Assembly (NCBI GenBank): GCA_903912365.1
Contig: CAIWGV010000035.1
Location: 1 to 58,373, forward strand
Length of the DNA stretch: 58,373 nt
From: an uncultured Alphaproteobacteria bacterium
Lineage (GTDB): Bacteria; Pseudomonadota; Alphaproteobacteria; UBA7879; UBA5542
Direction of reading: 5' to 3'
The notes beneath the pieces were generated by a model, which saw only the letters and a program-made list of their open reading frames with translations, ran no database searches and was not told the origin of the DNA. The stretch's first letter is position 1, and each line of letters starts with the position of its first letter. The translations under genes and the position numbers were made by a program. Below, one piece after another: positions 18,525 to 35,435 of this stretch.

Positions 18525-18601
18525 CGCGGGGTGGAGCAGCCCGGTAGCTCGTCAGGCTCATAACCTGAAGGTCGTCAGTTCAAATCTGGCCCCCGCAACC
18601 A
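18525..18601 (+). tRNA. initiator tRNA-fMet (CAT)
   Basis: CGCGGGGTGGAGCAGCCCGGTAGCTCGTCAGGCTCATAACCTGAAGGTCGTCAGTTCAAATCTGGCCCCCGCAACCA is near-identical in layout to E. coli tRNA-fMet, including the C1xA72 mismatch, anticodon CAT and encoded CCA. Confidence 0.95.
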
Positions 18602-18607
18602 ATTACT
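18554..18607 (+). repeat. left att core (3' 48 nt of tRNA-fMet plus 6 nt)
   Basis: AGGCTCATAACCTGAAGGTCGTCAGTTCAAATCTGGCCCCCGCAACCAATTACT is identical to 35382-35435. Confidence 0.9.
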
Positions 18608-18649
18608 AAGCCACTTTCAAAGATCTTTCCTTAAAATCCAAAAATCCCA

Positions 18650-18668
18650 TTGCCGCACTGTTGCCGCA
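18650..18668 (+). promoter_or_regulatory. two TTGCCGCA repeats 11 bp apart (candidate integrase/Xis arm-type sites, left end)
   Basis: TTGCCGCAcTGTTGCCGCA lies 43 bp inside the left att core. The same octamer occurs three times at the right end. Confidence 0.4.
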
Positions 18669-18707
18669 GAATGAGATGAACTTGTTTTTAATCAGCATCA
18701 TCCCCAT

Positions 18708-19517
18708 ATGATAACTGGACAATATCAGTCATTATGTATAGGGATATGTAAATTGAAAAAGTTGGCGCTTATTTTTGGAATTCTTTTAGGAAGCAATCTA
18801 TTTGCTGCAGCCGATTCTGATTCTATCAAGGACATTAGAACTGCCGTTAAGTCTTTAGAAACAGGAGCATCTTTCTCGTTTTACGATCTCCATCTGTCCG
18901 ATCAGGAGTTAAAAGACCTACAGTCCCTCCAGATAAAAACTGCGGATCAGTATGATAATTTTGGAAAGATTGATGCTTTTCCTCAAGAATTAAGAGCTTT
19001 TCTTAAGAAAGTCGGACCCAATGAAGAAGGTGCCATAGAAAAAGCCTCTAAGATTATCGAAAGAATGGTATCTCAGTTAGTCGTCGCTTCAGGACAAGAA
19101 GCAGCGCACATATGCATGAGGGCAACGGTCCCAAGCCCCGCTTTCGATACGCTCCGTTGGCATGTGGATGGGTATTACTATGAACCTCGCACACATCAGT
19201 ACAAGTTTGTTGTTTCTCTTAAGGGACCTCCAACTCTGTTTTATAAGCCCTCCCTTTCTACCAGAGAAAAATTTCTAACCCTTCTCAATGAAGATATTTC
19301 TTACCAAATGGATGCAAAGAAGCGACAAATTCTGGCAGATCTTCTGAATGATCCTTCCCAACGTTTCCAGGCAGAATCCACTCAAGGAAGCGCTTTCGTT
19401 GTGGGAGATGAAGCCGTTGCGGCCGTGCATTCAGAACCTCCTATGCCTGTTGAGAGGCTTTTTATTTCTGTTATCCCTGGAACCAAAGAGCAAATTGCTG
19501 AGTGGCAGAGGCGTTAA
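18708..19517 (+). CDS. hypothetical secreted protein with HxD...H motif
   Basis: 269 aa. Hydrophobic N-terminus (LALIFGILLGSNLFAAA). RWHVDG and AAVHSEPP resemble a 2-His-1-carboxylate facial triad. Family not recognised. Confidence 0.5.
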   Translation: MITGQYQSLCIGICKLKKLALIFGILLGSNLFAAADSDSIKDIRTAVKSLETGASFSFYDLHLSDQELKDLQSLQIKTADQYDNFGKIDAFPQELRAFLKKVGPNEEGAIEKASKIIERMVSQLVVASGQEAAHICMRATVPSPAFDTLRWHVDGYYYEPRTHQYKFVVSLKGPPTLFYKPSLSTREKFLTLLNEDISYQMDAKKRQILADLLNDPSQRFQAESTQGSAFVVGDEAVAAVHSEPPMPVERLFISVIPGTKEQIAEWQRR

Positions 19518-19518
19518 A

Positions 19519-19536
19519 TAGAATTTACAAATTCTA
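19519..19536 (+). terminator. AT-rich hairpin after the 18708-19517 gene
   Basis: TAGAATTT-AC-AAATTCTA is a perfect 8-bp stem starting 2 nt after the stop. It has only a weak T-tract (acctctttt). Confidence 0.3.
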
Positions 19537-33906: not shown

Positions 33907-34016
33907 TATCTTAAACTCTTGGAATTGAAGAGGAAGTTCCTCTCCCAAAAGTAGCACCAGGGTAGCACCGAAGAAAATCTCGAGATCCCTGAGGCCCCTA
34001 AAATCCTTAGTGAGAG

Positions 34017-34048
34017 TGGTGGGCGCGACAGGATTCGAACCTGTGACC
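34017..34048 (-). pseudogene. orphan tRNA 3' fragment (T-arm, acceptor 3' strand, CCA)
   Basis: The reverse complement reads GGTCACAGGTTCGAATCCTGTCGCGCCCACCA. No matching 5' acceptor GGGCGCG or D-arm lies upstream. It is different from the tRNA-fMet repeat and sits 18 bp beyond the integrase stop. Confidence 0.6.
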
Positions 34049-34065
34049 ATTTAATTGATGCAAGG

Positions 34066-35235
34066 TCACCCCTTCTCTCCTCCATCTCCGTGCAAGAATA
34101 TATTCTCAATGGCCTTTTCCATGGAGTTTCTGACGGCCTCCCGATTAAAACGAGCATAGATGGCCGTCGCTTGCTGGGACCTGTGCCCTAAGGATGCTCC
34201 AATGGTGGGCAAGCTCGAACCCATGATGGCTTGATAACTTCCCAAAGTACGTCGGATATCATGGATACGCAAATTTGTGATGTTGGCTCTCTTCAGAACT
34301 CGCATCCACGTTTTTTTGGGATCTGCGAGATGACCTCGTTTACTCTTCTCACTGGGGAACACCCAAGGGCTTGTAGCTTCCGCTTTCCGCGCCTCAAGCA
34401 CTTCTAAGGCATGGTCCTCAAGCGGCACATGGAGAGGCTCTCCATTCTTCGTTTCAGGAATACGCCATTCCTTATGGTACCAATCAATCTCATCCCAACG
34501 CATGGCTAGAACATTCGACTTGCGGGCTCCCGTTAACAGCGAAAGCCAGATATAATCTCGTGCCGCGGTATTCTCCTCTTCTTTCAAAGCTTGGAACAAG
34601 CCTGGCAGTTCAATGGGCTGAATAAACCGATCCCTCGATTTCTCTTTGAACTTCTTGATGCCCTCTGCAGGGTTCCTTCCCTCCCATCCCCATTCTCTGG
34701 CCTTATTGTAAATTGCCCGAATGCGTTCCAGAAGGCGATTGGCCTGGTAGAGTCCATTCTCTTCTTTTACTTTTTCGTGCAGGCTCTGAACTTCCTGCTT
34801 CGTAATGGTGGATATTTTACGCTGAAACCAGTGAGACAGAAATTTATTGACCTCCCGCTCATCGTAGATCCAGGATCGTTTGTACTTCTTACTGTAGCGC
34901 TCCATGTATTCCTGGAATAGATCTCGAAAGAGGGTCTCGTTCCGAAGTCTCTGACGCTTAGAGTTGGGATTAATGCCCTGAGCCACATCCCCCTTCGCTT
35001 TAAGGGCCAGTTTCCGCGCATTTTCCACGGATAATGTGGGAAAAGCTCCCAACACAATGCGCTCATCTCTTCCATTGATACGCTTTCGAAGGAAGAACGT
35101 TGCCGCACCCTTGGAGGTTAAATAGAGACTTAGACCTTTTTCCTTGTCGTCATGATACGTCACCAAACCCTTTTCAGGAAAGGAAAGTTTCTGGATACTA
35201 AGCTTCGTAAATGTAAATTTTTTGTCCTTTTCCAT
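34066..35235 (-). CDS. int: tyrosine recombinase/integrase, P4 (CP4-57)-like with N-terminal arm-binding domain
   Basis: 389 aa. N-terminal DUF4102-type segment (KLSFPEKGLVTYHDDKEKGLSLYLTSKGAATFFLRKRINGR). Catalytic residues are in order: LTGARKSN, HDIRRT, GHRSQQATAIYAR. Confidence 0.9.
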   Translation of the reverse strand: MEKDKKFTFTKLSIQKLSFPEKGLVTYHDDKEKGLSLYLTSKGAATFFLRKRINGRDERIVLGAFPTLSVENARKLALKAKGDVAQGINPNSKRQRLRNETLFRDLFQEYMERYSKKYKRSWIYDEREVNKFLSHWFQRKISTITKQEVQSLHEKVKEENGLYQANRLLERIRAIYNKAREWGWEGRNPAEGIKKFKEKSRDRFIQPIELPGLFQALKEEENTAARDYIWLSLLTGARKSNVLAMRWDEIDWYHKEWRIPETKNGEPLHVPLEDHALEVLEARKAEATSPWVFPSEKSKRGHLADPKKTWMRVLKRANITNLRIHDIRRTLGSYQAIMGSSLPTIGASLGHRSQQATAIYARFNREAVRNSMEKAIENIFLHGDGGEKG

Positions 35236-35264
35236 TGCCGCACCGTTGCCGCATTATTGCCGCA
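35235..35264 (+). promoter_or_regulatory. three TTGCCGCA repeats at exact 11-bp spacing (candidate arm-type sites, right end)
   Basis: TTGCCGCAccgTTGCCGCAttaTTGCCGCA starts at 35235, 35246 and 35257. The first overlaps the integrase start codon. Confidence 0.45.
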
Positions 35265-35381
35265 ATCCATGTTAAAAACCCTCTAAATTGGGGTACTTGC
35301 ATTAAAGAGAAAATACGCTAGAATCCTTTGTGTGTAAAGGTTTATTAAGATTTATTAAAAGTCGGAAAACACTAGATTCTT

Positions 35382-35435
35382 AGGCTCATAACCTGAAGGT
35401 CGTCAGTTCAAATCTGGCCCCCGCAACCAATTACT
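35382..35435 (+). repeat. right att core (displaced 3' part of tRNA-fMet)
   Basis: 54/54 identity to 18554-18607. There is no tRNA 5' half upstream. Confidence 0.9.

Follow-up and report, generated by a model that had tools for sequence, protein, structure and literature searches.

The window analysed here comprises 58,373 nucleotides of contig CAIWGV010000035.1 (assembly GCA_903912365.1) from an uncultured Alphaproteobacteria bacterium. It contains an intact initiator tRNA gene and, 16.8 kb further on, a second copy of the 3' part of this gene, beside which a tyrosine integrase gene (int) is located. The DNA at positions 18608–35435 is very probably a genomic island, inserted in the initiator tRNA gene by site-specific recombination through its own arm-binding integrase. 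The two ends of the island and the gene to its right are made up as follows (coordinates refer to the window):

18525–18601, forward strand: intact initiator tRNA-Met(CAT), called by ARAGORN and Rfam; its last 48 nt serve as the copy of the attachment core on the island side
18554–18607, forward strand: attL core, the left copy of a 54-bp direct repeat, beginning in the 5' strand of the anticodon stem
18650–18668, forward strand: P' arm, two tandem TTGCCGCA repeats with an 11-bp period, 48 nt past the tRNA 3' end
34066–35235, reverse strand: int, a tyrosine integrase gene (Arm-DNA-bind_3, Phage_int_M and Phage_integrase in Pfam)
35235–35264, forward strand: P arm, three tandem TTGCCGCA repeats with an 11-bp period, abutting the int start codon
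35382–35435, forward strand: attR core, the right copy of the repeat, consisting of the displaced tRNA 3' fragment and 6 nt
35505–36209: ddpX in the right flank, coding for a D-Ala-D-Ala dipeptidase

The 54-mer AGGCTCATAACC...CAACCAATTACT is present in exactly two copies in the window, with zero mismatches between them, and 0 copies were expected in 100 shuffles. It consists of bases 30–77 of the tRNA (48 nt) followed by ATTACT (6 nt). At the right end, bases 30–77 were found at 35382–35429 on the forward strand, in the same orientation as the intact gene, and the similarity ends 5' of this copy (TAGATTCTT versus TAGCTCGTC). Neither ARAGORN nor Rfam, the latter also at a permissive threshold, called a tRNA at this position, and no tRNA 5' half is present there. 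The fragment is located in a 269-bp gap between int and ddpX and does not overlap with a conserved coding domain. A search for a tandem array yielded no further tRNA-fMet fragment inside the island. The intact tRNA-Met at 18525–18601 shows, as read from the sequence, the C1×A72 mismatch that marks bacterial initiator tRNAs. In its anticodon stem, A29:U41 is followed by two G:C pairs, so that the first of the three conserved G:C pairs is replaced; this position falls inside the putative crossover region of the island.

The integrase displays the P4-type arm-binding (DUF4102) architecture, with E-values of 5.5e-15 for PF13356 and 2.2e-24 for PF00589. The catalytic residues R238, K263, H325, R328, H351 and Y360 were found to be invariant in an alignment of the protein with 32 homologues. 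Similarity to the integrase of phage P4 is distant (26% identity over 247 aa, E 5e-15), and identity to any sequenced phage integrase does not exceed 28%. More than 2,400 homologues were obtained at E < 1e-20. The int start is 146 bp away from the right repeat copy. The motif TTGCCGCA was counted nine times in the window, compared to 1.4 expected occurrences, and the gaps between its arm sets and the 54-bp repeat are 118 bp on the P side and 43 bp on the P' side. An earlier note on this DNA had described a perfect 54-bp repeat without a tRNA 5' half at the right copy, a catalytically intact-looking P4-type integrase about 150 bp inside that copy, and ddpX as the right-flank gene. The repeat count and the tRNA calls agree exactly with the first of these points, the domains, the catalytic set and the measured distance with the second, and the dipeptidase domain with the third.

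The same geometry recurs in many related loci. The relatives comprise 80 JGI loci fetched with a family profile and several contigs obtained by exact protein look-up; from 82 related loci, the 68 with at least 260 bp upstream of int were counted in the fragment tally. A reversed tRNA-fMet 3' fragment was found 139–248 bp before the int start in 33 of the 68 loci. Sorted by integrase identity, it was present in 17 of 20 loci at 57% or above, in 12 of 28 at 50–56% and in 4 of 20 at 42–49%. The fragment starts between tRNA bases 26 and 33, and between bases 30 and 33 in all but two cases. Nine relatives are complete, with sizes of 8.3–11.2 kb, and each of them ends at an intact tRNA-fMet. Exact repeats of 47–92 bp, all starting with (A)GGCTCATAACC, were observed in seven of the nine; in L096 and L108, no exact stretch exceeds 27 and 18 bp, respectively. 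All ten islands, i.e. the one in the window and the nine complete relatives, have two to three tandem arm repeats with an 11-bp period before int and two copies of their own arm motif 25–105 bp inside the tRNA end. The motif varies from one island to another (TGCGGCAA, GTAGCACC, GTAGCAAC or GTAGCCCC) and matches at both ends of each island. This co-variation, seen at the level of sequence, argues that the repeats are likely functional arm sites of the integrase. More distant relatives (integrase identity of 42–53%) use tRNA-Thr(GGT) with the same geometry.

The position of int at the tRNA-distal end had been regarded as less usual in the earlier note. Given the recurring fragment geometry (33 of 68 loci, 17 of 20 at or above 57% identity, and nine whole islands), it is instead the norm for this integrase family. 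Two loci are exceptions. In L091 (9574–9852), an intact tRNA-Pro(CGG) lies upstream of an integrase with 63% identity, and a 19-nt piece resembling the fMet anticodon region is found 149 bp before int; in L105, an intact forward tRNA-Met (9568–9644) lies upstream of an integrase with 59% identity. Locus L118 features an extra tRNA-fMet fragment at 2030–2074, 7.7 kb past the int-side end of a complete island, which points to tandem integration or to an earlier integration event at this site.

Integration into tRNA-fMet, as proposed in the earlier note, is thus supported by the intact tRNA, its cognate 3' fragment, the intact integrase, the paired arm repeats and the geometry of the relatives. 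By analogy to lambda and P4, the attP site of the circular form would consist of the int start, three TTGCCGCA repeats, about 118 bp, the 54-bp core, 43 bp and two further TTGCCGCA repeats. Its junction would read ...CACTAGATTCTT, the 54-mer and AAGCCACTTTCAAAG. The corresponding attB site would be composed of the tRNA 5' half (...GTAGCTCGTC), the 54-mer and TTCTTTTCTTTCTCC. Crossover would occur inside the part of the core that belongs to the anticodon stem-loop. The element would supply a new tRNA 3' portion, by which the tRNA stays intact, and the old 3' portion of the host would be displaced to the far end by int.

The interior of the island codes for the following proteins:

18708–19517, forward strand: orphan of 269 aa (o269), for which gene callers give the start at 18753; signal-peptide-like N-terminal segment, no family hit
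19643–20650, forward strand: orphan of 335 aa (o335)
20878–21084, forward strand: AlpA-like excisionase-type helix-turn-helix (HTH) protein of 68 aa (Pfam HTH_17; PHROG 'excisionase and transcriptional regulator', E 7e-4)
21085–22095, forward strand: RepA-like helicase of 336 aa with AAA_25 and a C-terminal HTH, without a Toprim primase part
22390–24327, reverse strand: ankyrin-repeat protein of 645 aa, cargo
25173–25847, forward strand: orphan of 224 aa made up of two repeats of about 110 aa (internal tandem duplication)
26081–27541, reverse strand: ATPase_2 / STAND-like NTPase, PDC-S27 (PADLOC)
28099–28944, reverse strand: calcineurin-like metallophosphoesterase
29112–29618, forward strand: phosphoesterase (PHROG 547, E 1e-52)
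29910–31112, forward strand: HipA-family kinase
31073–31273, forward strand: HTH_3 protein of 66 aa, its gene overlapping hipA by 40 nt
31473–31940, reverse strand: small TraD-like protein (PF06412, a weak match with E 1e-6), also present in the relative L179
32167–33906, forward strand: OLD-family ATPase-nuclease-like protein (AAA_21, AAA_15)

An AlpA-like/RepA-like pair had been noted near the left end, and the domain matches bear this out, with HTH_17 at 20878–21084 and AAA_25 plus HTH at 21085–22095. The repA start codon directly follows the alpA stop codon. Excision would require the integrase together with the small HTH_17 protein, whose role would be that of a directionality factor or an activator, while the AAA_25 helicase would serve the replication of the circle. 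Only three homologues of o335 were found; its AlphaFold model has a predicted local distance difference test score of 63, and Foldseek returned no PDB hit better than E 0.2. No PDB sequence match was obtained for o335, o269 or the OLD-like protein.

Judging from the domain matches, the cargo appears to consist mainly of candidate anti-phage defence functions (an OLD-type nuclease, the PDC-S27 NTPase and a HipA module), together with the ankyrin protein and orphans. The PDC-S27 match is full length (E 3.4e-104, residues 11–479 against profile positions 3–473 of 474) and places the protein in this family, which is itself unvalidated as defence (PMC12988326). The PADLOC Old profile matches residues 279–577 of the OLD-like protein (E 6e-23); Pfam gave no Toprim hit, and the protein is a candidate nuclease. 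The likely HTH_3 partner of the kinase comes after hipA, which is the reverse of the classical hipBA order, and no small HTH open reading frame (ORF) was found upstream of hipA. The ankyrin protein probably acts on a eukaryotic host. Several small orphans lie beside the 224-aa orphan, between the ankyrin gene and the PDC-S27 gene. A sub-threshold Rfam match to the SymR antitoxin RNA was observed in antisense orientation over the start codon of this 224-aa protein (25105–25178, reverse strand; 39 bits versus a gathering threshold of 61, E 2e-4 in 17 kb). A SymR/SymE reading was rejected, as the match is below the Rfam threshold and the overlapped 224-aa protein is not SymE-like. A search of plasmids with the DNA of the whole island gave no match. 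Among the cargo of the relatives are an Eco47II restriction-modification pair, a giant protein with a SMEK domain, an Abi/HEPN protein, a zeta toxin and an ankyrin protein. Within the family, genes for defence and for interaction with the host serve as cargo that can be exchanged.

The G + C content in 1-kb windows ranges from 0.34 to 0.53 in the island, with a standard deviation of 0.045, compared to 0.027 outside. Values are 0.516 for alpA-repA, 0.479 for int and 0.382 for the ankyrin gene. The mosaic composition with a G + C-richer alpA-repA module and int, as stated previously, was therefore found again. The ankyrin gene, likewise described as A + T-rich, does have a low G + C content; the poorest stretch of the island is, however, located at 26.0–29.6 kb (0.34–0.365).

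Among the genes of the island, alpA recurs in 48 loci of the relatives and repA in 8; otherwise, only weak ankyrin and HipA similarities were detected. The conserved core of the family is formed by int, the excisionase-like HTH gene and a primase-helicase. The replication protein of the relatives is either a Toprim primase fused to an AAA_25 helicase and HTH (503–659 aa) or split, with a separate DUF7146-Toprim primase followed by a helicase of 334 aa. The island in the window retains the helicase only, and the primase is missing. In 47 of the 48 relatives, alpA is located downstream of int on the same strand, whereas the o335-alpA-repA block of the window is found on the strand opposite to int, at the far end of the island. 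Unlike the position of int, the AlpA/RepA pair at the left end is thus an unusual feature. In L180 (a 78% relative), the order on one strand is int, an o335-like gene (29% identity, E 1e-20), alpA and a long ORF.

Two features behind int bear on this arrangement:

33951–33969, forward strand: relic P' arm, GTAGCACC twice with an 11-bp period, 47 nt from the relic core
34017–34048, reverse strand: relic attachment core, a 32-nt tRNA 3' fragment (T-arm, acceptor and CCA) directly behind the int stop codon

The relic fragment is not derived from tRNA-fMet and matches no tRNA of the window. The unit GTAGCACC-N3-GTAGCACC was found in 10 related loci, always by the int start or at the tRNA-proximal end, and is the predicted arm motif of another branch of the family. 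The spacing of 47 nt compares with 48 nt at the attL site of the window itself. In spacing and orientation, the relic corresponds to the tRNA-proximal end of a forward-strand family member, in the same orientation as the alpA-repA-cargo block. The presence of this attachment half of a second family member behind int indicates that the island is a rearranged chimera, and we infer that most of its interior probably comes from the second element. The integrase, P arm and part of the core of that element would have given way to the present int-attP cassette or been rearranged with it; in the circular form, this cassette would extend over 34066–35435 and from 18608 to about 18700. Either the cassette would have been swapped in inverted, or the interior would have been inverted after the hybrid had formed. 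In L179 (a 79% relative), int is followed by a convergent ATPase gene and a traD-like gene, as in the window, indicating that the arrangement is not a one-off.

The island also contains three copies of a palindromic element of about 82 nt, which was found once more in L179:

24376–24457, forward strand: copy 1
25846–25927, reverse strand: copy 2, inverted
31289–31369, forward strand: copy 3
4076–4163 of L179: copy just after int

The element is an imperfect palindrome, GTTCCCCACGAATTCCACAAGCCC...GGGCTGTGGAAATGTGGATAAC, containing TTATCCACA. In DNA folding, each copy forms a hairpin with z-scores from -4.4 to -6.6, and the consensus has 26 pairs, three of which show compensatory changes. In 0.95 Mb of loci scanned with a covariance model, the element was detected only in the window and once in L179. 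Rfam contains no match to it, and viral contigs lack it. Its copies stand on either side of cargo blocks; as to function, a terminator, a small mobile repeat or a joint between modules would be conceivable. An integron attC site was rejected, since the ends GTTC...ATAAC have the opposite polarity to RYYYAAC...GTTRRRY and no integron integrase is present. In addition, the 22-nt sequence GAGTTTGCATATTGC.TAT occurs with a 91% match at 24469–24490 (forward strand) and 32040–32061 (reverse strand), in each case on the strand of the adjacent gene. One site precedes the traD-like gene by about 100 nt, and the other is found at the 5' end of a small ORF starting at 24448; the sequence may act as an operator common to both. 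A 33-nt direct repeat (91% identity, 25986–26018 and 29778–29810) flanks the block of PDC-S27 and the two phosphoesterases, with a weaker third copy at 25936–25968.

As regards the host, the trpS gene of the right flank shares 80% identity with its counterpart in an 'uncultured Holosporaceae' metagenome-assembled genome and at most 60% with those of other alphaproteobacteria. In a genome scan with trpS, the contig of the 80% relative ended at this gene, and more distant genomes showed no synteny. The LpxI and Mla genes in the flank fit an alphaproteobacterium. The host is probably Holosporaceae-like and probably intracellular. The left flank codes for a protein of 1141 aa (14886–18311, reverse strand) without Pfam or NCBIfam match, and the AT skew goes down to -0.38 here; the breaks of two short metagenome assemblies (L003 and L004) fall within its coding sequence. 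In the nearest other species, whose ddpX is 79% identical, tRNA-Pro follows ddpX as in the window and an autotransporter gene directly precedes it. Neither a tRNA-fMet nor an island gene was found in the 6.8 kb upstream of ddpX. The case that all relatives carry the same gene content between the repeats, which the earlier note had named as refuting an island, is excluded by this absence.

On paper, the island is predicted to be competent for excision, as int is intact, the cores are perfect and the arm sets are complete at both ends. Several observations weigh against a mobile island integrated in the manner described. No empty attB site and no circular attP junction were found, the 54-mer being absent from JGI metagenome and viral contigs; this is explained by the fact that all contigs of the organism are identical to the window. 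Contigs with flank or island proteins, which come from few ENA and Logan samples, are 100% identical to it, and every such contig that reaches an island junction is occupied, leaving no polymorphism, the strongest sign of mobility, to read. The nearest other species offers a rearranged context and not a clean attB. The HTH_17 score of the AlpA-like protein (26.9 bits) is just below the Pfam cut-off of 27. The two routes to the chimera are not distinguishable by the data, and no inverted repeats were found at the candidate ends of an inversion (the o335–alpA interval and the position immediately left of int), where the score was at random level; a simple inversion at these break points was rejected on this basis. 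In Pfam, PADLOC and PHROG scans of the ORFs, genes for a primase, a relaxase, type IV secretion or packaging were not recognised. Any spread that still occurs must, for lack of primase, transfer and packaging genes, depend on a helper.

These points leave room for other explanations. It is conceivable, and we hold this view tentatively, that the island was integrated as described and is now a fixed, immobile remnant whose autonomy was ended by rearrangement and loss of the primase; the perfect repeats would then mean only a recent insertion or a clonal sampled population. The absence of a primase that relatives possess, the inversion of the core block relative to int, the size of 16.8 kb versus 8.3–11.2 kb in complete relatives, and the fact that all sampled contigs are occupied and identical are in line with it. 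It is at odds with the intact int with all its catalytic residues, with the perfect state of both cores and both arm-repeat sets, and with the window-like order by int in L179, which persisted through divergence. Induction and packaging of the island by a helper phage, as in satellites of the phage-inducible chromosomal island (PICI), P4 or tycheposon type, is unlikely. Defence cargo is typical of phage satellites and would fit. The core of int, excisionase-like HTH and primase-helicase as well as the 8–11 kb size of the relatives resemble PICIs and tycheposons (bioRxiv 10.1101/2020.12.28.424599). Yet no capsid, terminase, sid/psu-like or packaging gene was found among the scanned ORFs with PHROGs and Pfam, there is no similarity to P4 alpha or P4 ORF88, viral contigs contain neither the 54-mer nor the palindromic element, and the integrase is remote from those of sequenced phages.

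An integrative mobilisable element that is moved by a conjugative element is, in our view, quite improbable. The small TraD-like protein, kept in L179, points in this direction; its PF06412 match is weak, however, and the domain scans showed no relaxase, coupling protein or type IV secretion genes. From the sequence alone, no oriT was identified either. The alternative named in the earlier note, in which the right repeat is what remains of a second tRNA-fMet gene created by local duplication and the DNA between is ordinary chromosome, is hardly credible. It would account for the bare existence of a tRNA fragment. The boundary of the fragment, its orientation and its distance to the integrase recur in dozens of unrelated contigs, and this recurrence in independent relatives rules out a locally duplicated, decayed tRNA; in addition, the identity continues for 6 nt beyond the tRNA, both ends carry paired arm repeats and the composition is mosaic. 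Site-specific integration of an island into the initiator tRNA gene hence remains the preferred explanation. A wider scenario, which we consider doubtful, places the island and its relatives in a widespread lineage not described so far, whose members would resemble tycheposons or satellites, depend on helpers and be specialised on the initiator tRNA. Sister clades would target tRNA-Thr, and a change of target would come about by swaps of the whole int-attP cassette. If so, the relic core and arm unit behind int would be the footprint of a cassette swap, and the exchange of defence and effector modules could in this sub-lineage take place at the palindromes of about 82 nt.

Compared to phage P4 (NC_001609, annotated), the attP site of the island follows the same plan, with three plus two arm repeats around the core, and the integrase domain architecture is shared. 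In P4, three arm repeats are located at the int start, the core follows about 113 bp on, and two repeats lie 54 bp beyond. The P4 core is the 20-bp 3' end of a tRNA-Leu, whereas that of the island comprises 54 bp and begins in the anticodon stem. Moreover, the tRNA-sense strand of the P4 core points into int, which adjoins the intact tRNA. In the island, it points away from int, and int consequently adjoins the displaced fragment after integration. The site use of P4, with a short tRNA 3' core and int beside the intact tRNA, is therefore not shared, and the tRNA-distal int does differ from P4, where int follows the intact tRNA. Homologues of P4 alpha, sid, psu, delta and the excisionase/regulator ORF88 were not detected in the island.

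The island also falls outside other described groups. The ORFs lack alpha, sid/psu/delta and PHROG structural or packaging genes of a P4-like satellite (a cos site was not searched for). Of a Gram-negative type PICI, int and an alpA-like gene are present, and a primase and packaging genes are missing from the ORFs scanned. Membership in both groups fails because genes for capsid redirection, packaging and replication are lacking. With regard to integrative and conjugative or mobilisable elements, no relaxase, type IV secretion system or coupling protein was found in the island, apart from the weak TraD-like match (E 1e-6). Tycheposons are modular elements with a tyrosine recombinase, an excisionase, a primase/helicase and variable cargo; their integrases cluster by target tRNA, one target being a tRNA-Met, and partial tRNAs and degenerate elements accumulate in tycheposon islands (bioRxiv 10.1101/2020.12.28.424599). 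The island resembles them in its modular make-up and in the tRNA-specific integrase clades, a comparison by make-up only, as tycheposons were defined in Prochlorococcus by a gene-sharing network. It differs in the absence of primase and capsid genes and in its host, which belongs to a different phylum and is probably intracellular.

In the literature searched, we found no description of islands in Holosporaceae-like bacteria, of an initiator-tRNA target in these bacteria or of the present integrase clade. The analysis provides precise ends, a description of attP and attB and a testable pair of integrase and arm sites for a mobile element in a Holosporaceae-like bacterium. Beyond this locus, the initiator tRNA is targeted at its anticodon stem-loop by a large integrase clade known mostly from metagenomes, and int lies at the tRNA-distal end. 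The co-variation of the arm motifs and the relic attachment half document the exchange of integration modules; this relic and the family-wide attP architecture are the most instructive details. The OLD-type nuclease, the PDC-S27 NTPase with the neighbouring phosphoesterases, and the HipA kinase with its HTH partner are worth testing for defence.

Taken together, the element is a mobile island of an ordinary type, with relatives of like construction in dozens of metagenome contigs. The tDNA islands of Islander are characterised by an intact tRNA, a 3' fragment in the same orientation, an integrase between the two and a size of 2–200 kb (PMC4383910), all of which were found here. Current concepts are unchanged by the island, which belongs to the anticodon-centred attP class of Islander, comprising 2083 of 3919 islands (PMC4383910), and shows no essential difference from it.

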